Shown in pieces: positions 4,381 through 22,136 of a stretch of DNA of 64,000 nt. This DNA comes from Bacteroidales bacterium (GTDB taxonomy: Bacteria; Bacteroidota; Bacteroidia; Bacteroidales; JACABE01). Each line of letters starts with the position of its first letter. The stretch's first letter is position 1. The DNA lies in NCBI GenBank assembly GCA_038204725.1, contig JBBRCQ010000010.1:9072-73071 (forward strand), written 5' to 3'. The translations under genes were made by a program, and so were the position numbers. The notes beneath the pieces were generated by a model. The model was not told the origin of the DNA. It saw only the letters and a program-made list of their open reading frames with translations, and searched no databases.

Positions 4381-5352
4381 ATGAGTACAGAAGAAGAAAT
4401 CCCAAAAAAGAAAACGAGGAGAGAGTTCCTGCAGGAAGCAGGACTTGTTGGTATTGGTGCAGTAGTGGCAGGATCAGCAATTTTTGCTGGTATACAATAC
4501 GATAGTAAAAAGACGAAGGGTGCCCGAATAAAAGTGCTCACAGCCGAAAATGAACTCCTCGAAATTGAAAAAAATGATACTACCAAAGTAATAAAATCCA
4601 AAAGCGAAAATCTCACAAAACTCCAAAGAGAAGGAAGAGAAGGAATTGCAGGTAAACGATGGGTAATGGTAATTGATCTTTCAAAATGCCAAAATGCACG
4701 AAAATGCATGGCTGCATGCCAAGGTGCACATCATCTCAGACCTGAACAATCCCATATGATGACACTGACAATGCAGGAATCAGTTCATATGCCTCCTTTT
4801 TATATGCCAAAACCTTGCCAGCATTGCGACAATCCTCCTTGCGTGGCTGTTTGTCCTGTAGATGCAACTTATAAACGTCCCGATGGAATTGTATTGATTG
4901 ATAACGAAAGATGTATAGGCTGCAGGTTTTGTATTGCAGCATGTCCATATAGTGCAAGAGTTTTAAATTGGTCAAAGCCTTTGCATGATGCCGAAGATAA
5001 AGATTTAACGTATAATGTAGAACTTAACATCCCTCAAAGGTTAGGGACTATCACCAAATGTTTGTTTAGTGCCGATAGATTAAGGGAAGGAAAATTACCC
5101 TATTGTGTGTCGGCCTGCCCCAATGGTGTTTTTTATTTTGGAGATGAAAATGAAGATGCTGTAACCAACGGAACTACTAAAGAAACAGTCAGATTTAAAA
5201 AACTACTGGAAGATAATGCCGGCTATCATTTAATGCCGGAGCTTGGGACACAACCAAGAGTGTATTACCTTCCGCCCAAAAACAGAACGATTCCATTTAA
5301 AGAAAGCGACAAACCAGATGCAAATGAGCATAATGAAAATAACAAAGTTTAA
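4381..5352 (+). CDS. Tat-exported iron-sulfur subunit (NrfC/PsrB/ActB-FeS-domain family)
   Basis: 323 aa. Twin-arginine motif TRREFLQEAG precedes a hydrophobic stretch. Four ferredoxin-type Cys groups: CQNARKCMAAC, CQHCDNPPCVAVCP, CIGCRFCIAACP and CLFS...CVSACP. Two of the groups each lack one Cys. Confidence 0.85.
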   Translation: MSTEEEIPKKKTRREFLQEAGLVGIGAVVAGSAIFAGIQYDSKKTKGARIKVLTAENELLEIEKNDTTKVIKSKSENLTKLQREGREGIAGKRWVMVIDLSKCQNARKCMAACQGAHHLRPEQSHMMTLTMQESVHMPPFYMPKPCQHCDNPPCVAVCPVDATYKRPDGIVLIDNERCIGCRFCIAACPYSARVLNWSKPLHDAEDKDLTYNVELNIPQRLGTITKCLFSADRLREGKLPYCVSACPNGVFYFGDENEDAVTNGTTKETVRFKKLLEDNAGYHLMPELGTQPRVYYLPPKNRTIPFKESDKPDANEHNENNKV

Positions 5353-5366
5353 CTGAACATTATTTT

Positions 5367-6674
5367 ATGATACAACCATTAAATACAGACAAAATTACTT
5401 CAGATTTGCTTAGACCCATCAGGTTGAATATAGGCTTTAAAATCTGGATGGGTTTTTTAGGAATTTCGTTGATTGTTTGTCTCTATGCCTATACCATACA
5501 ACTTAAAAACGGCTTAGGTGTTGCTGGCATAAGGGATTATGTTTCGTGGGGGATGTATCTTGCCAATTTTGTATTTTTTGTTGCAACCAGTTTAATAGGA
5601 ATGTTAATAAGTTCAGTGCTGGGACTTTTAGGCGCAAAATGGGCTGCACCACTGGCAAGAATTGCCGAAATTATTGCCCTTGCTTTTGCTGCTGTTGCAG
5701 GATTGGTCATCGTTTCGGATATGGGACGCCCCGAAAGGCTTTTATATGTTTTTTTCTATGGGCGAATTCAATCACCCATCGTTTGGGATGTTACGGTTGT
5801 ATCGGTATATGTATTAATTAGTGCATTATTTCTGTATTTACCATTAATTCCGGATCTGAAAATCTGTTACGAAAAATTGGATAAAATCCCGAAATTACAA
5901 AGAAATATTTATAAGACTTTATCAATCAACTGGAATGGTTCATTGGAACAAGTAAAAATCATCAAACAATCTACAAGAATATTAGCTATTTTAATTATAC
6001 CGGTTGCTTTAGCTATACATACTGTTACTTCATGGTTGTTTGCAAATACATCAAGAGCAGGCTGGGATTCCACTATTTTTGGTCCCTATTTCGTCATAGG
6101 TGCTTTTGTTGCAGGCTGTGCTGCTGTGATTATAGCCATGTATTTTTACAGACAAAATTTCAAATTACAGGATTACATCACTGATTTTCATTTCGACAAA
6201 ATGGGAAAACTTTTAGTATTGGTATCCCTGGTATACCTCTACTTTAATTTGAACGAATACATGGTACCCGGTTATAAAATGAAAAAATTCGAAGCCATCC
6301 ATCTTCATGAATTATTTGTCGGAAGACATGCATTTTTATTTTGGGGAGTCCAATTATTCGGTCTTGTTTTACCCATCCTCTTTTTACTTTTCAGAAAAAT
6401 GAGGAAACCATTTCCGATGCTCGTTATTGCTCTATTTGTAATTGTGGGTGCCTGGTTCAAAAGATATATCATCGTGATCCCAACACAAGAACATCCGTAT
6501 TTACCCATTCAAAATGTTCCGCTAAATTTCAAAATATACACGCCTACACTCATAGAAACACTTATTACCATTGCACCATTTATTCTAGTTCTTATCATTA
6601 TTACTATATTATCGAAACTGATTCCTGTAATACCAATACAGGAAACCATTGAACAAACCGAAGAAACTAAATAA
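5367..6674 (+). CDS. NrfD/PsrC-like integral membrane quinone-interacting subunit (long, about 10-TM type)
   Basis: 435 aa, polytopic. Follows the FeS gene after 14 bp, the canonical NrfC-NrfD pairing. Its size matches the ActC/DsrP-length members rather than 8-TM NrfD. Confidence 0.8.
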   Translation: MIQPLNTDKITSDLLRPIRLNIGFKIWMGFLGISLIVCLYAYTIQLKNGLGVAGIRDYVSWGMYLANFVFFVATSLIGMLISSVLGLLGAKWAAPLARIAEIIALAFAAVAGLVIVSDMGRPERLLYVFFYGRIQSPIVWDVTVVSVYVLISALFLYLPLIPDLKICYEKLDKIPKLQRNIYKTLSINWNGSLEQVKIIKQSTRILAILIIPVALAIHTVTSWLFANTSRAGWDSTIFGPYFVIGAFVAGCAAVIIAMYFYRQNFKLQDYITDFHFDKMGKLLVLVSLVYLYFNLNEYMVPGYKMKKFEAIHLHELFVGRHAFLFWGVQLFGLVLPILFLLFRKMRKPFPMLVIALFVIVGAWFKRYIIVIPTQEHPYLPIQNVPLNFKIYTPTLIETLITIAPFILVLIIITILSKLIPVIPIQETIEQTEETK

Positions 6675-6683
6675 TGAATAAAT

Positions 6684-7589
6684 ATGTTTAGAAAAAATAT
6701 TTACAAGAAGTTTTATTTATCTATTTTAATTACTTTTTTCTTTTTTGGACAGTTGTATGCTCAAAAATGGGATGTTACTGCTGATAAAAAAGCTAAAAAA
6801 AGTTTCATTAAATTTGACAAAAATACAGCAAAAGAAGGCGAAACAATTTATACCAAAAACTGCAAGACTTGTCATGGTAATCCAGGAAAAGGTGACTTTC
6901 TTATAACTTTAAAACCACATCCTGTTGATCTGGCAAGTTCAACTACACAGAAATATACAGATGGAGATTTGTTCTATATCATTTCCACTGGTAGACAAAT
7001 AATGCCATCCTTTAAAAATGTTTTATCTGAAGATGAAAGATGGAAAGTAATTTCTTTTATAAGGAGCTTTAACAAAACCTATATCCAGGTTCTTTCGTTG
7101 ACTGACCCAAACAAAAGCAAACTGGTAAATATTACAATGGATTTTGATTCTATTTCCAACAAGGTGAATGTGATGATCAAAGCCAATGAAAAAACAGGAG
7201 TTGTAAATTTAAAGGATGCTGAAGTGCTGTTATTTGTAAACAGATATTTTGGGAAAATGCAAATTGATAAAACCATTCGTACCAATAATGAAGGAAAAGT
7301 TACCTTTAGTTTTCCCAAAGACTTACCAGGAGATAAAACTGGAATGGTGGATTTAACAATAAAAGTAAATGACGATAATTACGGGGAAATAGAGTCTCAA
7401 AATAAATTAAAAATAGGAATACCTACAGATAAACCCGGTTTAAATGAAAAACGGGCAATATGGAATGTTGTTAACAAAGCACCTTTTTGGATCATCATAA
7501 CATTTACATCCATTCTTTTAGTGGTAATGTTTTTTTTAGGTTACATCTTATATAGTTTATTTAAAATAAGAAAAATTGGAGCTGTTTAA
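6684..7589 (+). CDS. Monohaem class-I cytochrome c with an extra beta-rich domain and a C-terminal TM anchor
   Basis: 301 aa. Signal peptide, one CKTCH, and a Met ligand context QIMPSF. C-terminal helix FWIIITFTSILLVVMFFLGYILYSLF. Confidence 0.8.
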   Translation: MFRKNIYKKFYLSILITFFFFGQLYAQKWDVTADKKAKKSFIKFDKNTAKEGETIYTKNCKTCHGNPGKGDFLITLKPHPVDLASSTTQKYTDGDLFYIISTGRQIMPSFKNVLSEDERWKVISFIRSFNKTYIQVLSLTDPNKSKLVNITMDFDSISNKVNVMIKANEKTGVVNLKDAEVLLFVNRYFGKMQIDKTIRTNNEGKVTFSFPKDLPGDKTGMVDLTIKVNDDNYGEIESQNKLKIGIPTDKPGLNEKRAIWNVVNKAPFWIIITFTSILLVVMFFLGYILYSLFKIRKIGAV

Positions 7590-7633
7590 AAATACAATAA
7601 TTACAATTTCAGTTATTAATTAAAACATAAAAA

Positions 7634-8017
7634 ATGAAAAATCTCGCTATTTTTGGTAGAATATTGTTTGCTATACCCTTTGGTATTATTGGGTTAAACC
7701 ATTTTTTGATGACCAATTTTTTTCTGGGTCAAATGTCTTCATTTATTCCCGGAGGAGCTTATACTGTTTTATTGACAGGCGCTTTATTAATATTGGCAAG
7801 TATTAGTATTCTCATTAATAAATTTATAAAAATTACATGTTTTAGCTTAGCAGGATTATTGCTTATTTTTATCATAACAATTCATATTCCTGGTTTATTT
7901 ACTGTAAACGCTGAATTTGCATTAATTGAACTGCTCAAAGATACCGGATTAATGGGAGGAGCCATTATGCTTGCAGTTTATTCAGATTTTTCAAAATATA
8001 AATCCATTAAAGAATAA
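7634..8017 (+). CDS. DoxX-family membrane protein
   Basis: 127 aa, 4 TM. The LNHF... pattern is typical of DoxX-like proteins. Confidence 0.6.
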   Translation: MKNLAIFGRILFAIPFGIIGLNHFLMTNFFLGQMSSFIPGGAYTVLLTGALLILASISILINKFIKITCFSLAGLLLIFIITIHIPGLFTVNAEFALIELLKDTGLMGGAIMLAVYSDFSKYKSIKE

Positions 8018-8021
8018 TGCT

Positions 8022-8792
8022 ATGAAAAAGAAACTCATTTTAATTTTTATTGCTTTTATCATTTTTATTCCATTTTCTAAAGCTCAGGTAGATCAATCTG
8101 ATGATGTTGGCATAATTGAACATCTCGGCAAATACATCCCTTTAGATTTGCAATTTGTCAACGATAAATCTGAAGCAGTAACCTTAAGACAACTCATCAA
8201 CAAACCTACCATTTTATCATTTGTCTATTTTGACTGCCCCGGTTTGTGTAGTCCATTATTAGAAGGAGTTGGAGATGTTATACAAAAAACAGACCTGGTA
8301 TTAGGTAAGGATTATCAAGTGATAACGATTAGTTTTAATTTCAGAGATACTCCTGAAAAAGCCAAAGCTAAAAAGGAAAAGTTTATTGACCGCTATTCTA
8401 AAGGGAAAGGCGATGGCTGGATATTTCTTACTACTGACAGTCTGACGATTTTTAAAATTACTGATGCTACTGGTTTTAAAACAAAAGCAGTAGGTCTTGA
8501 TTTCGTACATCCTTCTGCAATTATTGCCATAAGTCCACAAGGTATGATTACAAGATATCTTTATGGAATCACTTTCCTCCCCATTGACTTTAAAATGTCA
8601 ATTTATGAAGCCAACAAAGAGCAACCCAGACCAACTATTCAAAAAATATTATTGATGTGTTATAGTTACGATATCGATAATAAACGATTTGCTTTGGATA
8701 TTACAAAAGTTTCAGGGATAATAATCGTTTTTTTCCTCCTTGTATTTATAGTAGGATTTCTAATTAAAAGCAAAAAGAAAAAACAAATATAA
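8022..8792 (+). CDS. SCO1/SenC copper chaperone for cytochrome oxidase
   Basis: Thioredoxin-like CxxxC copper site FDCPGLCSP, a downstream His (DFVHPS), and a C-terminal TM. Start moved from 7971 to Met 8022 (MKKKLILIF signal-like), which removes the overlap with DoxX. Confidence 0.85.
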   Translation: MKKKLILIFIAFIIFIPFSKAQVDQSDDVGIIEHLGKYIPLDLQFVNDKSEAVTLRQLINKPTILSFVYFDCPGLCSPLLEGVGDVIQKTDLVLGKDYQVITISFNFRDTPEKAKAKKEKFIDRYSKGKGDGWIFLTTDSLTIFKITDATGFKTKAVGLDFVHPSAIIAISPQGMITRYLYGITFLPIDFKMSIYEANKEQPRPTIQKILLMCYSYDIDNKRFALDITKVSGIIIVFFLLVFIVGFLIKSKKKKQI

Positions 8793-8799
8793 AGCAACC

Positions 8800-10410
8800 A
8801 TGAGTAACGAAACTACTAAAACAGAATATGTAAGTTATCTGGATCATCAGGGAAAGTATAAAGGATTGTTTTCCTGGATTTTTTCTACAGATCATAAAAG
8901 AATAGCGTTGCTTTATATGTATGCAATTTCAACGTTTTTCTTTGTGGGTGCTACTTTGGGTTTATTAATGCGATTAGAACTGATTGCACCCGGCGAAACG
9001 ATTATGAAACCACAAACCTACAATGGAATTTTTACGGTACATGGAATCATTATGATTTTCATGGTTGTTATTCCCGGATTATCAGCAATATTTGGAAATT
9101 TCTTTTTACCTATTCATATTGGTGCTAAGGATGTGGCTTTCCCAAAATTAAATTTATTTTCATGGTGGGTCTTTATAACAGGTAGTGTATTGGCAATTGC
9201 TTCTCAGTTTTTAAAAAGCGGACCTCCCGATACAGGATGGACCTTTTACGCCCCTTATAGCACGACTACAGGCACCAGTGTGATCATGGCTACTACAGCT
9301 GCATTTGTGCTTGGCTTCTCTTCTATCCTCACCGGACTGAACTTTATTGTTACAATTCATCAAATGCGTGCTCCGGGTATGAAATTCTTTAGTATGCCTT
9401 TATTTCCATGGTCAATTTATGCAACAGCTTGGATTCAATTACTTGCAACACCTATTATCGGGATAACGCTTTTAATGCTCATCGCAGAAAGACTTTTCGG
9501 AATTGGTTTTTTTAATCCTGAATTAGGTGGTGATCCGATACTGTTTCAACATTTGTTCTGGATTTATTCACATCCAGCAGTTTATATTATGATTCTTCCG
9601 GCAATGGGAGTTATCACAGAAATAATCCCTACTTTTTGTCAGAAAAGAATTTATGGTTACAAAGCCATTGCTTATTCAAGTATAGCCATTGCTGCCGTTG
9701 GCTTCCTGGTTTGGGGGCATCACATGTTTACTTCAGGTATGAGCGAAACAGCCAGATGGTTCTTTTCATTACTTACTTTTATTGTAGCTGTTCCAAGTGC
9801 GATTAAAGTTTTCAACTGGATTTCTACCATGTACAAAGGGTCTATTGACTTAAAGCCACCTTTTTTGTATTCCCTTTCGTTCATCTTCCTTTTTATAATA
9901 GGCGGCTTAACCGGTTTATTACAAGGTGCTGTTGCAATAAACATTCAGATACACGATACTTCATTTATTGTTGCACATTTTCATTACATTATTTTTGGAG
10001 GAATGGGTTTTGCATTTTTTGCAGCCCTTCATTATTGGTTACCTAAAATGTATGGCAGAATGTATAATTTCAAAATTGCCAATATTGCCTGGGGAATCAT
10101 TTTTATCGGTTTTAACTTTTTATATTTCCCTCAATTTATTCTTGGAATGCAAGGTATGCCAAGAAGATATTTCGATTATTTACCTATGTTTCAAACAGGT
10201 CAAATAATATCTACACTTGGTGGTATAACTTTAATATCAGGATTAATACTCATGGTATATAATTTAATATCCGGAATGAAAACAGGAGCAATTGCAACAG
10301 CAAACCCTTGGAATGGATCTACCTTGGAATGGCAGATCCCTTCACCCCCACCGCTGGAGAATTTTGATGTACCACCTGTTGTAAAAGAAAATCCTTACGA
10401 TTATAATTAG
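8800..10410 (+). CDS. ctaD: Cytochrome c oxidase subunit I, A2-type
   Basis: 536 aa with 12 or more TM and GHHMFTSGM. The helix VI motif FWIYSHPAVY carries the Tyr-Ser substitution for the HPEVY glutamate that defines A2-type haem-copper oxidases. Confidence 0.95.
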   Translation: MSNETTKTEYVSYLDHQGKYKGLFSWIFSTDHKRIALLYMYAISTFFFVGATLGLLMRLELIAPGETIMKPQTYNGIFTVHGIIMIFMVVIPGLSAIFGNFFLPIHIGAKDVAFPKLNLFSWWVFITGSVLAIASQFLKSGPPDTGWTFYAPYSTTTGTSVIMATTAAFVLGFSSILTGLNFIVTIHQMRAPGMKFFSMPLFPWSIYATAWIQLLATPIIGITLLMLIAERLFGIGFFNPELGGDPILFQHLFWIYSHPAVYIMILPAMGVITEIIPTFCQKRIYGYKAIAYSSIAIAAVGFLVWGHHMFTSGMSETARWFFSLLTFIVAVPSAIKVFNWISTMYKGSIDLKPPFLYSLSFIFLFIIGGLTGLLQGAVAINIQIHDTSFIVAHFHYIIFGGMGFAFFAALHYWLPKMYGRMYNFKIANIAWGIIFIGFNFLYFPQFILGMQGMPRRYFDYLPMFQTGQIISTLGGITLISGLILMVYNLISGMKTGAIATANPWNGSTLEWQIPSPPPLENFDVPPVVKENPYDYN

Positions 10411-10423
10411 AAAAACAAATGCT

Positions 10424-11041
10424 ATGAATGATCAACTGAAACACACTGAAGTACACAGAGATGACGAAGCATCCAAATTAGGCATGTGGCTCTTCATTTT
10501 TACAGAACTCCTTTTATTCGGAGGTTTATTCCTGGTTTATTCAATTTATAGAGCACAATATCATGAAAATTTTCATGAAGGGAGTTTAGAATTAAGTGTC
10601 ACAATAGGTGCAATCAACACAATTGTGCTTTTATTCAGTAGTATGACCATTGCAATGGCTTTAACTGCTATGCAAAAAAACAATAAAAAATTGGCTCTGA
10701 TAATGATTGCGGTTACATTGCTGATGGCTTTCATCTTTTTAGTGAATAAATATTTTGAATGGGGTGCAAAGTTTCATCATGGATTATACCCCGGATCTGA
10801 TTTAATGTCTCACTTAGAAAGAGGTCATCTTTTATATTTCAGCCTGTATTTTTTTATGACCGGATTGCACGCATTACATATTATTGTTGGGATGACACTT
10901 CTATTAATTGTATTTTTTAAAGTGAAAAATGGAAACATTCATTATCAAAAATATGTATTTCTGGAAAATGGAGCGCTTTACTGGCATCTTGTAGATTTAA
11001 TCTGGATTTTCTTATTCCCGTTAATGTATTTAATTTCATGA
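10424..11041 (+). CDS. ctaE: Cytochrome c oxidase subunit III (short form)
   Basis: 205 aa, polytopic, with a WHLVDLIWIFLFP motif. Confidence 0.85.
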   Translation: MNDQLKHTEVHRDDEASKLGMWLFIFTELLLFGGLFLVYSIYRAQYHENFHEGSLELSVTIGAINTIVLLFSSMTIAMALTAMQKNNKKLALIMIAVTLLMAFIFLVNKYFEWGAKFHHGLYPGSDLMSHLERGHLLYFSLYFFMTGLHALHIIVGMTLLLIVFFKVKNGNIHYQKYVFLENGALYWHLVDLIWIFLFPLMYLIS

Positions 11042-11351: not shown

Positions 11352-12272
11352 ATGTTTTCTAACGCTTCGAATTTTGTTCAGAATGTAGATTATGCATTTC
11401 TGATAATTTTAGGAATCTCATTTTTCTTTTTAATTTTATTAACTGCAATAATGGTTGTTTTTGTAGTAAAATATAATAAGAAAAAACACAGCAAAGCTGT
11501 TCAGATAAAAGACAATCCACTTTTAGAAATTACATGGACTATAGTACCATTGATTCTTGCACTTTATATGTTTTATATCGGCTGGGAAGGATTTCTTCCG
11601 ATGCGAAAAGCACCTAAAGATGCGATGGAAGTGAATGTAATCGGAAGAATGTGGAAATGGACGTTTGAGTACCCAGGCAATAAACTATCTGATACACTAA
11701 TATTACCAATACATAAATCGGTCAAACTCAACCTTATTTCAAAAGATGTTATCCATGGTTTCTTTATTCCTTCTTTTAGAATTAAAGAAGACGTTGTACC
11801 CGGGAAAAAAAATTATACATGGTTTATTCCCGGCGAATTGGGTGATTACAATCTGTTTTGTTCTTCCTATTGTGGGGTTAGCCATTCCTATATGTCAGCT
11901 ATTGTCAGGATTGTTCCCGATGTAAATTACTCAAAGTGGATAGCTGCTTTACCCGCTAAGCCATCAGAAAATCATGAAGGATATAAAATTATGGAAAATA
12001 ACGGATGTTTTTCATGTCATACAGTGGATGGAACTAAAAATGTAGGTCCTAGTTTCAGGGGATTATTCGGATCAACTATCGAAGTAATTACAAATGGGAA
12101 CCCAAGAAAAATCACAGTAGATGCAGAATACATTAAGTCTTCAGTTTATGAACCGGATAAAGATGTTGTGGTTGATTATCAAAAAGGACTCATGAAATCC
12201 TATCAAGGACTTATTAAAGAGAAAGAAATAAACGGAATAACAGAATATTTAAAAACATTAAACAAAAAATAA
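11352..12272 (+). CDS. ctaC: Cytochrome c oxidase subunit II with fused C-terminal cytochrome c (caa3 type)
   Basis: Two N-terminal TM helices. CuA site VIHGF...CSSYCGVSHSYM. C-terminal CFSCH haem c domain. Confidence 0.9.
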   Translation: MFSNASNFVQNVDYAFLIILGISFFFLILLTAIMVVFVVKYNKKKHSKAVQIKDNPLLEITWTIVPLILALYMFYIGWEGFLPMRKAPKDAMEVNVIGRMWKWTFEYPGNKLSDTLILPIHKSVKLNLISKDVIHGFFIPSFRIKEDVVPGKKNYTWFIPGELGDYNLFCSSYCGVSHSYMSAIVRIVPDVNYSKWIAALPAKPSENHEGYKIMENNGCFSCHTVDGTKNVGPSFRGLFGSTIEVITNGNPRKITVDAEYIKSSVYEPDKDVVVDYQKGLMKSYQGLIKEKEINGITEYLKTLNKK

Positions 12273-14496: not shown

Positions 14497-17280
14497 TTAG
14501 TATTTTCCAGCAAGTAATGAATAGATTATCAGTATCACAAGTATAATCCCAGTAAACAAGGCTATAAATCCAAATATTTTTACAAATTTAAGCCATGATT
14601 TAGTGATTTCTGTTTTAACAATATATTTCTCCATATCACCTGCTTCTTCCATTTTTTCAAATTCTTTGGGACGGTCAATTTTATATTCTTCCAATTCAAC
14701 ATGACCGGTAAAAATAACAGTATCCATTGGAAATGCTTCAGGACGCAAATGAGTATTGAAGAAATGAATAGTGAATATAAAAACTACAGCTAATAGTGCT
14801 TCATCACTATGTATAATTTGAGCTACATTAATAATCCAGCCGGGAAATATTTTGGTAAATATTTCAGGAAACCATAAAATTAAACCGGAGAATCCAATCA
14901 CAGCAACACCCCAAAAAACAGCCATATAATCAAACTTTTCCCAATAAGTCCATCTACCATATTTAGGACGTTCGCCCAACCATAAAAACCATTTAATAGT
15001 CGCAATGAAATCTATAACATCTTGTTTGTTAAACATTAATGTATTCGATCCAAAAATGAAAGATCCGATTTTTTTATTTTGGGCTTTTTTGAGTTTTAAT
15101 AAAGATACGATATGGAAAATAAAGTATCCAAAAGTAATTAATGCTGCAAAACGATGGATATTGCCTGCAATTTCAACACCACCCATTAATCTTGCAAAGT
15201 TATTTGCCCAGCTCATGTGGGCAAACTTAAGCATCATACCCGTAAAGGCTAACAATAAGAAGCTGAGTATTACAAAAATGTGAGTGATCCGCTGGCTTTT
15301 TGTAAATCGTCGGATGTATATTGCTTCTCCTTGTGGTAATGGATGACGTTTCTTTTTTCTGGCTTCAACAATGGAACGGGGAATCCATAAAAGTGTATGT
15401 ATTCCGAAAAATCCAAAAACACCAAAAAGCAATGAAGTCATACCCCAAAATGTATAATAAAGTATATTATTATCATTGTGGGTAGCATGAGATAAAAATC
15501 CTGTAAATTTCAGATTTGCATTGGCATGACATTTTTTACAGGTTTTTACAATGTATTTTTCTCCTACACTGGATTCGGGATTATTAATGTTCAGAATATT
15601 ATGTGCACCATGACAATCAGAACATCTAGCCGTTTTTAACTGACCCAGTGTATATGCTTTCCCATGATAGGTTTCCATATAGGAAGATGAAAGTTTTTCG
15701 TGACACGAGCCACATTGAATTGTAATCTGAGTTAAAAATTGATCTTTGTCGATTTCTGTAATCGTATGTGCTGTATGACAATTAGCACAAGTTGGATATT
15801 TTTTATCTTTTGTATTTTTTAAAATTGAATGATCACTGCTGATATATTCATTATAAATACTTTTATGACATTTTCCACAGGTTTTTGGGATTTGAAGCGG
15901 GTTTACCGTTGAATTAGGATCAGATTCCTTTAAAACATTATGTGAGGTGTGACAATCGGTACAAATCGCACTAGCTAGCAATCCTTTATTCATTAAACCT
16001 TTCCCATGAACACTCTTGGAATAATCACTAAAAGCATCTATTTCTTTTAAATTTGTATTGATAACAGCTTTTCCGTTTTTATTATGACACTTTCCACAAA
16101 GTTTCGGACTGTTTGCTCTGTTTGTTTCTGAATTCTCATCATATCTGCTTAATATAATATGTGTTCCATGACAATCGGTACAATAGGGTGCATTCGATTT
16201 TTTACCATAAAATGCCTGTCCATGTCCACTATTTATGTAAATATTCGAAACTGCTTCATGACATATAGAACAATCTACTTTACCTACTGTTTTACAGGGT
16301 CGAACATGGCTATTATCTTTAGTTACGTCAGCATGGCATTTATCACAGGCAATATTTTTATGAGGTGTATTCATAAAATCTTCATGATTGATTTTTAAGG
16401 ATACTTTTTTATTATTTACAATTTTAAAAGTATTATCAGACTCATGACATTTTGTACATACCTGATTGGATATGGAAATTTCTTCTTTTTGACGTTTTAT
16501 TTTATGTGATGAATGGCAATCGTTGCAACTGGGTATACTTCCCGCTTTCTTTTCCCATAATTCACTCTTTATAACCTTTTTATGAACCATTTCAATGTTA
16601 GTATGACATTTCATGCAGGTAGATGCAATTTTTTTACTAGAAGTAGTAGCCTGAGGATTGATATGGGGAAGTATCAAATGGTTCCCATGACAATCATTAC
16701 AAGTTGCTGAAACTATCAGTCCACTTTCTAACAATCCTTTTCCATGTATACTCTCACTGTAATTGGTGAGAATATTTTGCGTAGTTATGTTATATAATCG
16801 AGCAACCGGAGCGCCTTCTTTATGACATTTACCACACAAAACAGGAATGTTCATTTTATAAGTAACTGATTTTACATTGGTATGTGAAAGGACATCATGT
16901 TTTCCATGACATTCCTTACAATCAGGAGCATAAGGAGCATTAAATTTTAATGCCTGCCCATGAATACTAATACCAAATTGATATTCAGCATTTTTATGAC
17001 AACTGCCACAACTTACTTCCTTGAGATTTTCGGGATGAGGAAAATCTGTTACATTCGCATCTTTATGGCAAGATATACATTTTACATTTTTATGTATAGA
17101 ATTCCCAATTATACTTTTATTGACAAACAATGAAACGGTTTTGCCATTGGATACTTTTGTCAGGGTTTTATCACTATGGCAACCATAACAGTCATCATTC
17201 GTCTGTGAATATAAATTACCTGTAAAAAAAAGAAAACTCGTAATTACTAGTAATAGGATTGCCTTGATAACATTTAACAT
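14497..17280 (-). CDS. Multihaem cytochrome c (19 CxxCH) fused to a dihaem cytochrome b-like membrane domain (CbcL-like architecture)
   Basis: 927 aa. Signal peptide, then 19 CxxCH motifs (7 are CxxCHxxH) in residues about 30-590. About six TM helices follow, with the FdnI/HydC-type His pattern (RFTKSQRITH, GNIHRF...FIFH, IIHSD...TIHFFNTH). Confidence 0.85.
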   Translation of the reverse strand: MLNVIKAILLLVITSFLFFTGNLYSQTNDDCYGCHSDKTLTKVSNGKTVSLFVNKSIIGNSIHKNVKCISCHKDANVTDFPHPENLKEVSCGSCHKNAEYQFGISIHGQALKFNAPYAPDCKECHGKHDVLSHTNVKSVTYKMNIPVLCGKCHKEGAPVARLYNITTQNILTNYSESIHGKGLLESGLIVSATCNDCHGNHLILPHINPQATTSSKKIASTCMKCHTNIEMVHKKVIKSELWEKKAGSIPSCNDCHSSHKIKRQKEEISISNQVCTKCHESDNTFKIVNNKKVSLKINHEDFMNTPHKNIACDKCHADVTKDNSHVRPCKTVGKVDCSICHEAVSNIYINSGHGQAFYGKKSNAPYCTDCHGTHIILSRYDENSETNRANSPKLCGKCHNKNGKAVINTNLKEIDAFSDYSKSVHGKGLMNKGLLASAICTDCHTSHNVLKESDPNSTVNPLQIPKTCGKCHKSIYNEYISSDHSILKNTKDKKYPTCANCHTAHTITEIDKDQFLTQITIQCGSCHEKLSSSYMETYHGKAYTLGQLKTARCSDCHGAHNILNINNPESSVGEKYIVKTCKKCHANANLKFTGFLSHATHNDNNILYYTFWGMTSLLFGVFGFFGIHTLLWIPRSIVEARKKKRHPLPQGEAIYIRRFTKSQRITHIFVILSFLLLAFTGMMLKFAHMSWANNFARLMGGVEIAGNIHRFAALITFGYFIFHIVSLLKLKKAQNKKIGSFIFGSNTLMFNKQDVIDFIATIKWFLWLGERPKYGRWTYWEKFDYMAVFWGVAVIGFSGLILWFPEIFTKIFPGWIINVAQIIHSDEALLAVVFIFTIHFFNTHLRPEAFPMDTVIFTGHVELEEYKIDRPKEFEKMEEAGDMEKYIVKTEITKSWLKFVKIFGFIALFTGIILVILIIYSLLAGKY

Positions 17281-17363
17281 TTTTATTGGGTTTAATTCTT
17301 AAACAAAAGGATTGATGATAAAAACTTGAGCTTTTTTATATGTTTGTTCAAAAGATGTATAAA

Positions 17364-17406
17364 TTAAATCACGAATTGGAACTAAATGCCCCAATTCGTG
17401 ATTTAA
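17364..17406 (-). promoter_or_regulatory. Perfect 16-bp inverted repeat (stem-loop) between the monohaem cytochrome gene and the 19-haem gene
   Basis: TTAAATCACGAATTGG, an 11-nt loop, then CCAATTCGTGATTTAA. On the transcribed (minus) strand it is followed by UUUAU. Possible attenuator or mRNA-stability element. Confidence 0.5.
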
Positions 17407-17425
17407 TATTAAAGTGAATCAGAAC

Positions 17426-17818
17426 TTAAAGTGTCCTCAAATAATTCACTAAATTCCATTTTTCATTATCATCTTTAATTTTAGTCTTGTATGCAGGCAT
17501 TTTACCATGTCCTGTATTTATTTTATAGAAAATAGCACCATCTGTTTGTGTTTTGAATGTTTTCAATGTAAAATCAGAAGGTTCTGCCATTTTACCAACT
17601 CCTTTACCAGTGGCGCCATGACACAATTTACAGGTCTTTGTAAACAAAACTTTACCTGCAGCAATAGATGTAGCATCAGAATTTACAGGATTTTTAACAG
17701 AGGCAGCAGCAGCAGGTACATCCCAGCCTTTGTCAACGCTAACAAAAGAAAACAGACATAAAACAATGGTAGCCATTGAAAAAGTGATAACTACTTTTTT
17801 AAATTTTACTTTTTTCAT
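17426..17818 (-). CDS. Periplasmic monohaem class-I cytochrome c
   Basis: One CKLCHG and a Met ligand context HGKMPAY. Start moved to Met 17818 (MKKVKFKK plus hydrophobic signal). Same subfamily pattern (W-D-V-P...NP...G...CxxCHG..GKG) as the N-terminus of the 6684 cytochrome. Confidence 0.85.
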   Translation of the reverse strand: MKKVKFKKVVITFSMATIVLCLFSFVSVDKGWDVPAAAASVKNPVNSDATSIAAGKVLFTKTCKLCHGATGKGVGKMAEPSDFTLKTFKTQTDGAIFYKINTGHGKMPAYKTKIKDDNEKWNLVNYLRTL

Positions 17819-17871
17819 GTTATTTCTCCTTAGTTTTAAATGATTAATAATATATAATGTACTAAACAAAA

Positions 17872-18804
17872 TTAGTAAAATACTCTTGTAATATTAAATC
17901 CAAGCATCAATCCACTATGCAAAAAATCATTCTGGTTATAAACCATATTTCGTTGATATGTAATATCATAAGCAGTAGTTACAAATATTTGGAACGAATG
18001 AGCAGAAGTTGCATTTTCAATCCCAATAGCTATATTTGGTTTTGCTTCTTTATACGTATCATTGTCATTCAATTTTTTATACAATTTTGTAAAATTATGA
18101 TCGTATTCACCAAAAAGAGCAATAGTAGGCGTTAAATTAACTTTTGCAATAACAGAAAGTCCAAAGTTGTCATTTCTTCTAAGTCTTACATTGGTCGTAT
18201 CATTTTTGGCATAGGATTCTGCAATATTATAATGTGTATAGGTTGGAGCGATCTGCAAATTTAAAAAATCAGTAATCTTGCGTGAAAACATAATTTCGTG
18301 AAAATATGACAACCTGTGAACATATTTGTAGTTTGCATAGTCAAAATTAGACGATTCTCTCGCATCTAAAACTAAAGAACCATAATAAGTAATTGAAACC
18401 GGTATTTTTCCATTTGTAGTTTGTTCTACAATACCATATTTAATACTCAAGTCCTGTTGTTTGTTAAATTTAGTAGCTCCAATACCAATCTGCAATTTAT
18501 CTGTAATACTATAGTTGAGCCCCAATCTAATATTTGAAGGAGAATAAATACCCCAAAATTCGTCAAAACCATCACTTATTTTACCAAATCTGTGATTAAT
18601 TACAAACTCTAACGTTTTGGCCGGATACATTAATACCGTTTGATTTTCAAGAAATATACCGCTGTTGTATGTGCCGGTAACTGGTTTGTTAGGTTCAGGT
18701 GTTTCCTGAGCAAACAAAAAACTTGTTGCAAAAATTGCAATAAACACAAAGGATGTAAAATATTTAATCAGTATGTGATGTGTTGTTTTTTTTATTGTTA
18801 TCAT
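17872..18804 (-). CDS. Small outer-membrane beta-barrel protein (HRFG-motif family; DUF5777-like from memory)
   Basis: 310 aa. Signal peptide ...SFLFAQE, alternating hydrophobic strands throughout, and a C-terminal ...GFNITRVFY aromatic terminus typical of BAM substrates. Confidence 0.65.
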   Translation of the reverse strand: MITIKKTTHHILIKYFTSFVFIAIFATSFLFAQETPEPNKPVTGTYNSGIFLENQTVLMYPAKTLEFVINHRFGKISDGFDEFWGIYSPSNIRLGLNYSITDKLQIGIGATKFNKQQDLSIKYGIVEQTTNGKIPVSITYYGSLVLDARESSNFDYANYKYVHRLSYFHEIMFSRKITDFLNLQIAPTYTHYNIAESYAKNDTTNVRLRRNDNFGLSVIAKVNLTPTIALFGEYDHNFTKLYKKLNDNDTYKEAKPNIAIGIENATSAHSFQIFVTTAYDITYQRNMVYNQNDFLHSGLMLGFNITRVFY

Positions 18805-18874
18805 AATTTTGTCTTTTTTGTGATTTATATAATAAACTTGAATGTTAACAGTTTCTTGATATGATTATTAAATA

Positions 18875-19246
18875 TTAATTATCCAATGCTCCCGTATCAA
18901 TCCATCCTTTTAAATTGGTTAATTCAGTGGAAGTTAATGATTTACCCTGGTGACTTGCTCCGTTAAATTTCAGAAACAAAATACTTGTAGCAGAACTGTT
19001 AGGAACAACTGCATCTACTAATAAATTAGCTCTAACTGCAGACGGTGTACCGGTTAATGTTAAACCACCAGCAGTACCATGACAGCCTGTGCAATTATAT
19101 TTGGTAAAAATAGGATAAACATCCGTTGAAAATTTTGCATTCGGATTTGGAACGATCACTGTAACTTTAGGTTCAATAGTATCTTTAGTGCAACTTCCAA
19201 GTATCACAAAGATAAAAGCAATTAAAAACAGTACTCTGATTTTCAT
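18875..19246 (-). CDS. Monohaem c-type lipoprotein (PSCyt1-like domain pattern)
   Basis: Start re-set to Met 19246 (MKIRVLFLIAFIFVILGSC, lipobox LGSC). Single CTGCHG in VYPIFTKYNCTGCHGTAGGLTL...LTSTELTNLKGWIDTGA, which resembles the planctomycete-type cytochrome C domain pattern as I remember it. Confidence 0.7.
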   Translation of the reverse strand: MKIRVLFLIAFIFVILGSCTKDTIEPKVTVIVPNPNAKFSTDVYPIFTKYNCTGCHGTAGGLTLTGTPSAVRANLLVDAVVPNSSATSILFLKFNGASHQGKSLTSTELTNLKGWIDTGALDN

Positions 19247-19433: not shown

Positions 19434-19447
19434 TTGACATATATCAA
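19434..19447. promoter_or_regulatory. FNR/CRP-type palindromic box TTGACATATATCAA
   Basis: TTGAC-N4-ATCAA, one mismatch from the TTGAT-N4-ATCAA consensus. Lies 188 bp upstream of the lipoprotein-cytochrome operon start in the divergent intergenic region. Confidence 0.55.
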
Positions 19448-19822: not shown

Positions 19823-20518
19823 ATGGAAGATAAAAAAAATCCTAAACACTGTGGAGCCTGTCTGACAAAGCTTCCTATCTTTAAATCGCTGACTGAAGAA
19901 CAATTTGAATTGGTTAATCAGGTACGTTGCAGAGTTAAATTCCGCCCTGGTGAAATTATATTTAAACAAGGTACAGCCATGACACATATTATCGTTGTCA
20001 ACGAAGGTCTTGTAAAAATTTATCTTGAAGGCATCAACAACCGTAATTTGATACTTCGTTTTGCCAGACCTGTTTCAATAATAGGTGGCCCCGGATTTTT
20101 TACAGATTTTAAAAATCATATAACAACTGTAGCTGTCGAAGAATCCTCAGCTTGTTTTATAGATGTAAATACGATCACTGATTTATTAAAAGTGAATACA
20201 GATTTTGCAATAGATTTATTAAAATGGGTGAATTCTCAAACTTTATCTAATTATTTAAAGTTCATTGAATTAACCCAGAAAGGTATGCATGGAAGAATTG
20301 CCGGGGCTCTGCTTTATTTGCATTCTGAAGTTTTTATCGATAGAAATGGTGAAATCCGGATTAAACGTCAGGATTTAGCTGACCTCACTGCAATGTCAAA
20401 AGAAAGTGCTATCCGTATATTAAAAGAACTCAAAGATGAAAATATCATTTCAGTCGATGGAAATGCAATTATTTTAAATGATATTGCCAGTTTAACACAA
20501 ATTAGTATTAAAGGATAA
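19823..20518 (+). CDS. Crp/Fnr-family transcription regulator with FNR-like cysteines
   Basis: 231 aa with a cNMP-binding-like beta-roll and a C-terminal HTH (RQDLADLTAMSKESAIRILKEL). N-terminal HCGAC and an internal EESSACFIDV. Confidence 0.85.
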   Translation: MEDKKNPKHCGACLTKLPIFKSLTEEQFELVNQVRCRVKFRPGEIIFKQGTAMTHIIVVNEGLVKIYLEGINNRNLILRFARPVSIIGGPGFFTDFKNHITTVAVEESSACFIDVNTITDLLKVNTDFAIDLLKWVNSQTLSNYLKFIELTQKGMHGRIAGALLYLHSEVFIDRNGEIRIKRQDLADLTAMSKESAIRILKELKDENIISVDGNAIILNDIASLTQISIKG

Positions 20519-20632: not shown

Positions 20633-20646
20633 TTGACATTTATCAA
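20633..20646. promoter_or_regulatory. FNR/CRP-type palindromic box TTGACATTTATCAA
   Basis: Same half-sites as the box at 19434. Its centre is about 32 bp upstream of a TACTTTTA -7-like box (20671-20678) and 160 bp upstream of the hexahaem gene. Confidence 0.55.
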
Positions 20647-20801: not shown

Positions 20802-22136
20802 ATGAAAAAATTTAACTTTAAATTTTTATTTACAGGAGTCATTATGCTTTCAACAGCATCAATGTTTTTTCTGTCAGGTTGCGCAAAAGATGGCAACGAC
20901 GGTACAGATGGTAAAGATGGTAAAGACGGAGTGGATGCAATTGCAACTTGCAAAATCTGTCATAATGCATCAGTAGTTGATAGTATTGCAACTCAATTTC
21001 AACTTTCAAAACATGAATATGGTTTAGCAGCTGAAGAAGAAGCTGGTAATACTTCTTGTGGTCCATGCCACGAACAAGAAGGATTCAGATATGTTATTAA
21101 AGCCAATACTTCAACACAGTTTCTGATTGTACCACCTGCAACTACCTATTCAAATCCTTATGCAACAACAGCTTCTACTTCATTCGGTTCTTTGGGTTGT
21201 AAAACTTGTCATAGTAGTTTACATACTACATATGGTTATTCTGATATTTCAGCTTTAACCACAACTGCAGCCGTTCCATTAACAATGTGGGGTGGTGCTA
21301 AAACTGTTAACCTTACACAGGATGGCGGAAAAAGTAATTTATGTGTTAGATGTCATCAACCACGTCCATTCACTAATTCTAATACCGACAAAAATGTATT
21401 AAATTATGCTAAATTAGTTAGCAATCCAACTGATACATTTTATAGCTTTACACAAGCAAATACATTAAATGTACTGAAACCTGCTTACAGAACTCATACT
21501 CATTACGGTACTGCAGGTGCAGTTTTCGCAGGTACAGCTGGTGTTGAATTCACAGGTGCTTTAACTTATACCAGTTCAAAACATACTACAGATGTAAGTT
21601 GTCAGGATTGTCACATGGCTCCTATGCAAGGTGCTGCAGGTGGACATACTTTCAAATCAAAAGGCAATTTTAATGGTTGTACTCCATGTCACCCATCAGT
21701 AAATGCAACTTCTCAGGATGCTGCTTACTGGTCAACTCCAAGAGCTGATATCAAAACTTTACTAAACCAACTGGCTGCTAAATTAACTATTGGTGGTGTA
21801 GATATATTAAATAGAAACGGAGATAGTGAATCAAATCTTTGGATAGGTTTAACTACCAATAACTATGATGGTTATTTAAATGTCTATGATCCTATTACCA
21901 ATCCATCAGGCGCAACATACAATACAAGCAGTTTCCGTTTTACAGGAACTCCTCCTTCATCTTGGACTTCAGCCCAAATTGCGTATAACAATTCTTTACC
22001 AAGAATCACCCTAACCAATGCACAAATGGGAGCTATCATCAATTTCCAGATGTGTTTGAGAGATTACAGTTTAGGAATTCACAATTTCAAATATACTAAA
22101 GCATTATTGACAAACTCAATTGCTATGTTACCATAA
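20802..22136 (+). CDS. Hexahaem c-type cytochrome lipoprotein with a collagen-like GXY stretch
   Basis: 444 aa, lipobox FLSGC. Immediately after the Cys comes AKD-GND-GTD-GKD-GKD-GVD. Six CxxCH motifs: CKICH, CGPCH, CKTCH, CVRCH, CQDCH and CTPCH. Confidence 0.8.
   Translation: MKKFNFKFLFTGVIMLSTASMFFLSGCAKDGNDGTDGKDGKDGVDAIATCKICHNASVVDSIATQFQLSKHEYGLAAEEEAGNTSCGPCHEQEGFRYVIKANTSTQFLIVPPATTYSNPYATTASTSFGSLGCKTCHSSLHTTYGYSDISALTTTAAVPLTMWGGAKTVNLTQDGGKSNLCVRCHQPRPFTNSNTDKNVLNYAKLVSNPTDTFYSFTQANTLNVLKPAYRTHTHYGTAGAVFAGTAGVEFTGALTYTSSKHTTDVSCQDCHMAPMQGAAGGHTFKSKGNFNGCTPCHPSVNATSQDAAYWSTPRADIKTLLNQLAAKLTIGGVDILNRNGDSESNLWIGLTTNNYDGYLNVYDPITNPSGATYNTSSFRFTGTPPSSWTSAQIAYNNSLPRITLTNAQMGAIINFQMCLRDYSLGIHNFKYTKALLTNSIAMLP

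Follow-up and report, generated by a model that had tools for sequence, protein, structure and literature searches.

Electron transfer at the bacterial outer membrane has been described in several forms. Cyc2 consists of one polypeptide, at least 365 amino acids (aa) long and with 16 strands, which carries the motif AXPXFAR[QK][TY] before its CXXCH and PXL after it (PMC8406198). The MtrCAB, PioAB/MtoAB and OmaB-OmbB-OmcB systems employ barrels of 20 to 26 strands that sheath a multihaem cytochrome. Among small haem proteins acting on iron, PgcA of Geobacter sulfurreducens is a lipoprotein located outside the cell, and its bis-His domain III binds Fe(III) oxides as well as reducing them (PMC11520253), and FoxE of Rhodobacter ferrooxidans SW2 is a soluble dihaem protein of a type that oxidises Fe(II) in the periplasm with His/Met ligation (PMC10654088). 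At the inner membrane, Geobacter CbcL (a nine-haem c-type protein fused to a dihaem b) and CbcBA are quinol oxidoreductases required for the reduction of extracellular Fe(III) and electrodes (bioRxiv 10.1101/2021.04.15.440034). Here we examined a three-gene unit in a 64,000-nucleotide (nt) stretch of a Bacteroidales genome (contig JBBRCQ010000010.1, hereafter the window), consisting of a monohaem lipoprotein, a DUF5777 beta-barrel and a class-I cytochrome c, which a preliminary description had compared to an unfused Cyc2. The lipoprotein and the barrel are an obligate pair in Bacteroidota. The reading that we prefer, tentatively and at nearly but not quite an even chance, is that together they make up an obligate two-protein module in the outer membrane, belonging to a respiratory electron-transfer chain that is under FNR control and reaches the cell surface.

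By open reading frame (ORF) analysis, positions 19246 to 17426 of the minus strand hold three co-oriented genes, encoding the monohaem lipoprotein (123 aa; 18875..19246, ATG at 19246 and stop at 18875) with a PSCyt1-like cytochrome c domain, the outer-membrane beta-barrel (310 aa; 17872..18804; PF19089), and a class-I (c6/c551/CcoP-like) monohaem cytochrome c (130 aa; 17426..17818, ATG at 17818). The lipoprotein and barrel ORFs are in different frames and 70 nt apart. All three genes are present at the positions and on the strand previously given for them, and every checkable detail of that account of them was correct. The surrounding region of the window is a respiratory island in a genome of approximately 33% G+C, and all relatives found belong to Bacteroidota.

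Pairing of the lipoprotein and barrel genes was examined from both sides. A barrel scan (one genome per species, 4-sequence alignment) returned 19 loci, mostly of close relatives, at which pairing was established by ORF calling, blastp and hidden Markov model searches. Diversity was added by exact-protein look-ups of diverse barrels (nine loci, L020-L024 and L027-L030), and five further loci were reached from lipoprotein homologues. At 19 of 19 scanned loci a single-haem lipoprotein of the window family (121-158 aa) was encoded just upstream of the barrel. Overall, the two genes were adjacent and co-oriented in 29 barrel-anchored pairs from 28 loci, one of which (L030) holds two tandem pairs, and DUF5777 followed immediately downstream in all five lipoprotein-anchored loci. 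Adjacency held as barrel identity fell from 77% to 28%, and the gap between the genes was below 200 nt in 23 of 24 measured pairs, the exception being L019 with 552 nt. The question raised by the preliminary description, whether barrel homologues always sit beside a CxxCH lipoprotein, was thus answered in the affirmative at every locus examined. Fusion of the two was seen in none of the 120 listed barrel homologues, and the best 150 lipoprotein relatives contained no DUF5777 domain. These results support a true functional pair. The class-I cytochrome c, in contrast to the constant pair, comes immediately behind the barrel at 15 of the 33 related loci and is an accessory third gene. In L027 the cluster is intact except for an inserted DDE_5 transposase (7081-8475) that separates the barrel gene from the cytochrome c gene.

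The lipoprotein begins with MKIRVLFLIAFIFVILGS-C19, with a lipobox reading ILGS-C19, and its mature part is a single domain of 105 aa. It carries one CTGCH, in which C52, C55 and H56 form the CxxCH, in the context VYPIFTKYNCTGCHGTAGGLTL...LTSTELTNLKGWIDTGALDN, exactly as previously quoted. H99 is the putative distal haem ligand. C19, C52, C55, H56 and H99 are invariant in an alignment of close homologues, and the first four of these are invariant in family alignments of 55 and 61 sequences. The preliminary description had made its idea depend on conservation of the CxxCH among orthologues, and conserved it proved to be: among 120 family members, CxxCH was present 111 times and CX4CH 8 times (119 of 120 overall), a single member having neither motif. 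The position of H99 is occupied by Met in several distant members, and judging from the alignment the family alternates between His/His and His/Met ligation. Because the distal position is His in the window clade and Met in distant members, tuning of redox potential is suggested and appears plausible; the invariant second His of the window clade suggests bis-His, low-potential ligation there. The lipoproteins of L020, L021, L023, L027, L028 and L030 form a CX4CH subclade (e.g. C-N-S-S-G-C-H) in which Met replaces the distal His.

Directly behind the lipidated Cys the lipoprotein has a tether motif, C-x-[YK]-[DE]-x-[IV]-x-P (residues 19-27; window 19166-19192), with an acidic residue at +4 in 99 and Pro at +8 in 98 of the 120 family members. 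Such conservation is unusual for a tether, and the motif may be a docking element for the barrel. Surface lipoproteins of Bacteroidota carry K-(D/E)2 or Q-A-(D/E)2 just past the lipidated Cys (PMC5080379). The window lipoprotein continues as C-T-K-D-T, with a single acidic residue, a partial fit to the K-(D/E)2 export signal. Partner lipoproteins with the full signal occur at other loci, with C-T-K-D-D in L021 and C-S-N-D-D-D in L017.

An exhaustive profile search placed 2,315 cluster representatives in the lipoprotein family at E<=1e-3. Many members are tandem arrays of 2-8 domain copies joined by Gly- or Pro-rich linkers, and these arrays appear to be PgcA-style tethered haem proteins of far wider spread than the Geobacter examples. 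Five such proteins (P0134, P0140, P0146, P0148 and P0149) have 4-8 tandem monohaem domains with poly-Gly, Pro-rich or acidic linkers; P0148 has larger intervening regions between copies, and P0134 has a multi-pass cytochrome-b-like membrane domain at its N-terminus.

Assignment of the domain was less direct. Pfam matches of the window lipoprotein were limited to weak Cytochrome_CBB3/Cytochrom_C hits; PSCyt1 (PF07635) gave no match to it at E<=10, short of the gathering cut-off, and neither the lipoprotein nor the barrel matched any NCBIfam model. Among nine close homologues one matched PSCyt1, at E 0.24, and 10 of 55 single-domain family members matched PF07635, the best at E 6.3e-10. On these profile comparisons the window protein is a domain related to PSCyt1 and a non-member by the curated threshold; the earlier recognition of a PSCyt1 pattern therefore stands at the level of the family and fails for the window protein alone. 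PSCyt1 differs in that it normally stands at the N-terminus of very large proteins from Planctomycetes and Verrucomicrobia, and a literature search on it returned incidental mentions only.

Two iron redox proteins emerged as possible relatives of the domain. A 55-sequence family profile matched FoxE (5mab) over the full domain (domain i-E 1.5e-5), aligning it with FoxE domain 2 including PxF...CxxCH...WIxxGA, and also matched the haem domain of hydrazine synthase alpha (5c2v, residues 636-723). FoxE differs from the window protein in being soluble, periplasmic and dihaem, with His/Met ligation. PgcA, likewise a lipoprotein, resembles it in carrying small monohaem domains that are flexibly tethered, and the window segment ...SH.GK.LT...L.N.K.W..., which holds the invariant second His, aligns with the distal-His segment of PgcA domain III (8qk0). 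This match is weak (E 0.14), was obtained with a narrower profile and covers that segment only; PgcA is moreover absent from the matches of the broader profile and from the fold search. PgcA homology was therefore downgraded as the main anchor. PgcA further differs in having three tethered monohaem domains, against one here, and we know of no dedicated barrel partner gene for it. The AlphaFold2 model of the lipoprotein is all-alpha (predicted local distance difference test, pLDDT, 88.7), and in Foldseek its best PDB match was 5c2v (TMq 0.56, E 0.03), followed by a weak match to FoxE.

The barrel matched PF19089 (DUF5777, "membrane bound beta barrel domain") with 230.1 bits against a cut-off of 23.1, covering model positions 5-247 of 247, and hence exceeds the gathering threshold over the full model. 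There are 378 barrel homologues, and the 120 listed are all stand-alone proteins of approximately 300 aa. No paper mentioning DUF5777 was found in a literature search. The motif EFVINHRFG that had been noted in the 310-aa barrel was found at residues 66-74, with H71, R72 and F73 invariant in 19 diverse homologues; invariant residues also include E66, K122, Q128, Q184, D235, E263, H269 and N304. The signal peptide is cleaved before Q33, a Gln that is invariant in all 23 orthologues; secreted proteins of Bacteroidota commonly receive an N-terminal pyroglutamate, with which this Gln start of the mature barrel is consistent.

The AlphaFold2 model of the barrel has 12 strands (pLDDT 81; predicted template-modelling score, pTM, 0.75), the lower end of the 12-16 strands previously estimated from its length, with five of six predicted outward loops long and four of five predicted periplasmic turns short. 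At this size, the earlier judgement that the barrel is too small to sheath a multihaem protein as MtrB does is borne out. A conserved 32-residue N-terminal segment is modelled confidently (pLDDT 83-88 for residues 41-60). Foldseek returned FapF, NanC, OmpG, COG4313 and Tsx as best matches, at template-modelling (TM) scores of approximately 0.5 and 8-13% identity, the closest being 12-14-strand channels; no MtrB-like protein was among the matches. FapF, NanC, Tsx and COG4313 share the strand number of the model, and none is known with a cytochrome partner. H71 and H269 appear, by strand periodicity, to be in register with hydrophobic and probably lipid-facing residues. The possibility that these two His build a haem or metal site within the barrel was considered and provisionally dropped, both being probably lipid-facing and at different heights.

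Taken together, the lipoprotein-barrel pair resembles Cyc2 in its parts list only. Both combine one c-type haem with one small outer-membrane barrel, are linked to periplasmic monohaem cytochromes and represent a minimal alternative to 26-strand Mtr-type conduits. Cyc2 is fused and at least 365 aa long, whereas the proteins of the present pair, of 123 and 310 aa, come from separate genes for which no fusion has been found, and the barrel has 12 modelled strands in place of 16. The Cyc2 motifs, tested at their published spacing (AXPXFAR[QK][TY] 5 aa before CXXCH, PXL 4 aa after; PMC8406198), are absent from the lipoprotein; it reads DVYPIFTKYN-CTGCH-GTAGGLTL, with only P-x-F in common and at a different spacing, and a P-D-L located 5-7 aa after CH occurs only in distant family members. 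The haem domain is furthermore PSCyt1-like and on a lipid anchor, and the partners are multihaem/cytochrome b proteins and an FNR-type regulator. The proposal of a split Cyc2 accordingly holds as far as a haem lipoprotein/barrel pair among respiratory cytochromes is concerned, and does not hold with regard to strand number, motifs and fusion. Like the Mtr, Pio and Omb systems, the locus has a barrel gene adjoining cytochrome genes, and a candidate surface multihaem lipoprotein and a putative inner-membrane quinol dehydrogenase in the same neighbourhood. It differs from them in lacking a barrel of at least 20 strands, in the one-haem nature of the constant partner, and in having no sequence relationship to them. 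The most fitting description of the pair is a new variant of the porin-cytochrome idea that shares no homology with the known systems.

The neighbourhood of the pair includes several features that the preliminary description omitted, although its picture of surrounding respiratory cytochromes was sound. Directly downstream of the trio and on the same strand, followed by tatA and tatC, lies a gene for a 927-aa multihaem c/cytochrome b fusion (14497..17280, minus strand) with 19 CxxCH motifs and a C-terminal Ni_hydr_CYTB/FdnI-like domain (PF01292, residues 658-837). Its other Pfam matches are Cytochrome_C7, Cytochrom_c3_2, MtrC/MtrF II-IV and Paired_CXXCH_1, with partial NCBIfam matches to DmsE-family decahaem and FDH-gamma models. 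By analogy it is a putative inner-membrane quinol:cytochrome oxidoreductase, and its 19-haem chain may span much of the periplasm. By architecture only, it resembles CbcL in fusing a multihaem c to a dihaem-b-type (HydC/FdnI-type) domain, with 19 haems in comparison to nine, and the literature search returned nothing relevant on CbcL in Bacteroidota. The protein is kept downstream of the pair at 76-84% identity in L001-L014. Behind this homologue, a second paralogue is encoded in L008, L009, L011, L012 and L014; it is 715-812 aa long and carries 12-16 haems. Multihaem c and cytochrome b occur in 23 of 33 loci, either fused as in the window or, in a manner recalling CbcBA, split into a multihaem c (7 CxxCH as read from the L020 sequence; 260-366 aa elsewhere) and a separate cytochrome b.

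On the other side of the trio, a 444-aa multihaem lipoprotein (20802..22136, plus strand) has six CxxCH motifs and a lipobox LSG-C followed by AKDGNDGTDGKDGKDG, a collagen-like tether. Its Pfam matches are weak (Cytochrome_C7, MtrC/MtrF II-IV, and Cytochrom_C552 of the NrfA/c552 type), and it continues past the lipobox as C-A-K-D-G, with one acidic residue compared to K-(D/E)2. Neither this protein nor the 927-aa cytochrome matched PDB sequences in phmmer searches. It is a candidate cell-surface electron-exchange protein. Lipoproteins with 5-6 haems and a G-x-x tether lie beside the pair in L003-L007, L013, L018, L020, L025-L029 and L031-L033, the tether repeats (G-x-D-G-x-D-G or G-T-N-G) standing right behind the lipobox.

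The third gene of the trio matched both PF13442 (43.8 bits) and PF00034 (36.4 bits) above their cut-offs, in agreement with its earlier assignment as a class-I cytochrome c, with partial NCBIfam matches. It has a signal or anchor at the N-terminus, and the CKLCH and downstream Met (in GHGKMPAY) characteristic of class-I cytochromes c. Beyond this gene, at a distance of 19 nt from its stop codon, a perfect inverted repeat (17 bp, 11-nt loop; 17363..17407, minus strand) forms a terminator-like hairpin that would end the three-gene unit. The hairpin was not flagged by a simple terminator scan because it lacks a T-run; a scan of the window for sigma-70 promoters and terminators gave counts equal to those of shuffled sequences and was uninformative.

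Between the trio and the 444-aa lipoprotein gene, divergent from the lipoprotein operon, lies a gene for a Crp/Fnr-family regulator (231 aa; 19823..20518, plus strand) with cNMP_binding and HTH_Crp_2 domains and partial Fnr/CRP matches in NCBIfam. The consensus TTGAYN4RTCAA has only two matches in the 64-kb window, flanking the regulator gene with one before each cytochrome unit: TTGACATATATCAA (19434..19447), approximately 190 nt upstream of the lipoprotein start codon, and TTGACATTTATCAA (20633..20646), approximately 155 nt upstream of the 444-aa lipoprotein gene. Related loci totalling 273 kb contained 12 exact matches, 11 of which fell in promoter regions belonging to the cluster or to the regulator gene. 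C10 and C13 (CxxC) and a central Cys (alignment column 134) are present in 11 of 11 regulator orthologues, with a fourth Cys in 7 of 11. In predicted fold, Cys cluster and boxes the regulator appears to resemble FNR, and it would presumably sense oxygen. A Crp/Fnr regulator gene was present in 15 of the 33 related loci.

A caa3 oxidase is encoded further left (CoxI 8800-10410, CoxIII 10424-11041, CoxII-cytochrome c 11352-12272). It had been described as standing beside the trio; it is indeed nearby, but on the opposite strand, with cyoE, tatC, tatA and the 927-aa gene in between. Linkage of the pair to an oxidase was seen in the window and L003/L004 only. The oxidase-linked chain through cytochrome c that had been envisaged is not supported, the cytochrome c being present in under half of the loci and the conserved partners being multihaem/cytochrome b proteins of a low-potential, quinol-dehydrogenase-like type, a multihaem lipoprotein and an FNR-like regulator, and no oxidase. 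Also to the left of the trio are haem-biosynthesis genes, an iron-sulfur (FeS)/NrfD/cytochrome c module, SCO1 and haem O synthase. The module (4381-7589, plus strand; FeS of the Fer4_11 type), which lies upstream of the SCO1 and caa3 genes, is a short ACIII/Qrc-like quinol:cytochrome c oxidoreductase; a module of the same composition recurs behind EB_dh-lipoprotein-barrel units in L030.

Two contexts of the pair could be distinguished among the related loci. In most, the Crp/Fnr regulator, a 5-6-haem G-x-x-tether lipoprotein, the monohaem lipoprotein and DUF5777 are followed downstream by an optional class-I cytochrome c and by split multihaem c plus cytochrome b and/or the fusion of approximately 930 aa. 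In Saprospiraceae, Cyclobacteriaceae and relatives (L021-L024 and L030; e.g. L021 4353-6909, L030 1-2563 and 4231-6978), a lipoprotein with an EB_dh domain (PF09459, haem b) precedes the pair, often with YceI. This set of domains, with its DOMON-like EB_dh, recalls the Cellvibrio extracellular electron-transfer proteins Cbp2D/Cbp2E, and the Cbp2D cytochrome domain (7b21) was a weak PDB match to the lipoprotein profile (E 1.5). Carriers of the cluster include the complete genomes GCA_942493325.1 and GCA_942493265.1 as well as Prolixibacteraceae relatives. The record names of related metagenome-assembled genomes (MAGs), which mention Deming, ELA, Loclat and Cfx enrichment cultures, suggest lake and groundwater sources, sites that we take to be largely iron-rich or humic anoxic waters.

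A respiratory electron-transfer role for the pair is the most economical reading because of the strict pairing, the conservation of the haem, the cytochrome-only neighbourhood and the FNR-type control, and the barrel places this role at the outer membrane. In the chain that we propose, the 927-aa cytochrome b/19-haem fusion or, in other genomes, the split 7-haem plus cytochrome b pair would take electrons from menaquinol at the inner membrane. Electrons would cross the periplasm through the long haem chain, with the small class-I cytochrome c contributing where present, and reach the monohaem lipoprotein held at the 12-strand barrel. They would then be handed to the tethered multihaem surface lipoprotein, or in other lineages to the EB_dh-type haem b lipoprotein, which would reduce acceptors outside the cell, for example Fe(III) minerals or humic quinones. 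Since a 12-strand barrel could not enclose the haem domain, the barrel is proposed to dock or thread the N-terminal tether of the lipoprotein, which would keep the haem at a mouth of the barrel, close enough for tunnelling to partners on either side. This is the likeliest membrane-crossing route, wholly a matter of inference, and location of the haem domain inside the lumen is unlikely. The genomic and predictive evidence shows the gene content, the strict pairing, the conserved haem motif, the 12-strand model, the FNR boxes and the conserved partners; physical association of the two proteins, localisation of the components, direction of electron flow and the crossing route are the parts of the scheme that we infer.

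The chain would be reversible in principle. Outward, reductive flow is probable, on account of the CbcL/CbcBA-like and multihaem lipoprotein partners, the FNR-like control and the apparent bis-His ligation of the window clade, and electron transfer outward under anaerobic conditions suits the context better than aerobic oxidation of Fe(II) via caa3. Inward flow with Fe(II) oxidation is possible; in its favour are the resemblance to FoxE, the presence of a class-I cytochrome c and a caa3 oxidase close by. 

Several points weigh against the proposed module. The surface-export signal of the lipoprotein, as read from C-T-K-D-T, matches only in part; the PgcA match is non-significant and the fold match to 5c2v modest (E 0.03). 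As modelled, the 12-strand barrel is too narrow for the 105-aa cytochrome domain, its N-terminal segment may plug the lumen, and its two invariant His appear to lend no support to a lumenal cofactor. A single haem offers no obvious means of bridging the outer membrane unless it sits mid-plane. Geometry is the weak point of any conduit model, and to our knowledge there is no precedent for a conduit so small. Finally, a class-I cytochrome c, of a type usually high in potential, and a caa3 oxidase 5 kb away fit inward flow. A bolder proposal, that the pair is the smallest outer-membrane electron conduit yet seen (12 strands, one haem), unrelated to Mtr, Omb and Cyc2, and serves Bacteroidota as a general plug-in wiring periplasmic cytochromes to different surface redox lipoproteins (multihaem for Fe(III)/humics in anaerobes, EB_dh/YceI-type haem b in aerobic Saprospiraceae and Cyclobacteriaceae), we consider doubtful.

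The alternative that survives best gives the barrel the part of an assembly, export or anchoring partner that displays or holds the haem lipoprotein, as with Slam, FapF-type proteins or RcsF in OmpA/C/F models, while electrons cross otherwise or by a soluble shuttle. The fold matches agree with this, the best being FapF, a 12-strand polypeptide secretion channel with a plug, along with other small channels, as does the strict 1:1 gene pairing; furthermore, the conserved tether motif looks like a recognition or docking element because tethers are usually variable. However, a holo-cytochrome c matures and folds in the periplasm, and the folded domain would be too large for the barrel. A private translocator also seems needless, as Bacteroidota have a general export route for surface lipoproteins with an N-terminal signal (PMC5080379). 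The constant periplasmic and surface cytochrome neighbours would go unexplained unless the partner took part in electron hand-over too, whereupon the explanation merges with the electron-transfer module. We regard it as unlikely.

A split analogue of Cyc2, in which the lipoprotein oxidises Fe(II) at or in the barrel and passes electrons to the class-I cytochrome c and on to caa3, with the multihaem/cytochrome b protein serving reverse flow to quinone, is improbable. It draws on the presence of one haem, a small barrel and a soluble class-I cytochrome c within one unit, on the caa3 oxidase and NrfCD-type quinol:cytochrome c module within the same 20 kb, and on the match of the family profile to the Fe(II) oxidase FoxE, with which distant family members share His/Met ligation (PMC10654088). 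From their record names and general knowledge, the host MAGs moreover come apparently from Fe(II)-rich waters. Set against this are the structural and motif differences from Cyc2 given above, the cytochrome c missing from 18 of 33 loci beside a much more constant multihaem/cytochrome b partner, and the rarity of oxidase linkage. FNR-type control in turn suggests induction at low oxygen, and the invariant second His of the window clade suggests low-potential ligation.

Quite improbable is a barrel acting as a channel for a small redox substrate (chelated Fe(II) or Fe(III), a shuttle of the quinone or flavin kind, or an oxyanion), with a periplasmic lipoprotein at its mouth as first oxidoreductase and no tunnelling across the membrane: the size and fold class shared with the small-solute channels NanC, Tsx, OmpG and COG4313, the many invariant polar residues that could line a pore (E66, R72, K122, Q128, Q184, D235, E263, N304), the partial export signal and the periplasmic Fe(II) oxidation by FoxE-type proteins (PMC10654088) speak for it, but it leaves unexplained the apparently surface-directed partners (the long-tether multihaem lipoproteins, and EB_dh and dihaem lipoproteins with the full K-D-D or N-D-D-D signal), the Fe(III) formed in the periplasm at neutral pH would be harmful, and the pore may be plugged by the N-terminal segment, which is modelled with confidence.

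Iron-rich anoxic lakes, sediments and bioelectrochemical reactors harbour Bacteroidota in abundance, and the literature searched defines no outer-membrane electron conduit for them. Metagenomic work on a humic bog noted unexplained "putative EET genes" (EET, extracellular electron transfer) in Bacteroidetes (PMC6344600). The electron-transfer module proposed here assigns a concrete role to DUF5777, a domain of unknown function, and to an unannotated family of monohaem lipoproteins. If the pair carries electrons across the membrane, it would set a new lower size limit for conduits, provide a compact two-gene EET marker for metagenomes and offer a small part for engineered electron export. If it merely positions a haem protein, it would still represent a new lipoprotein-barrel partnership.

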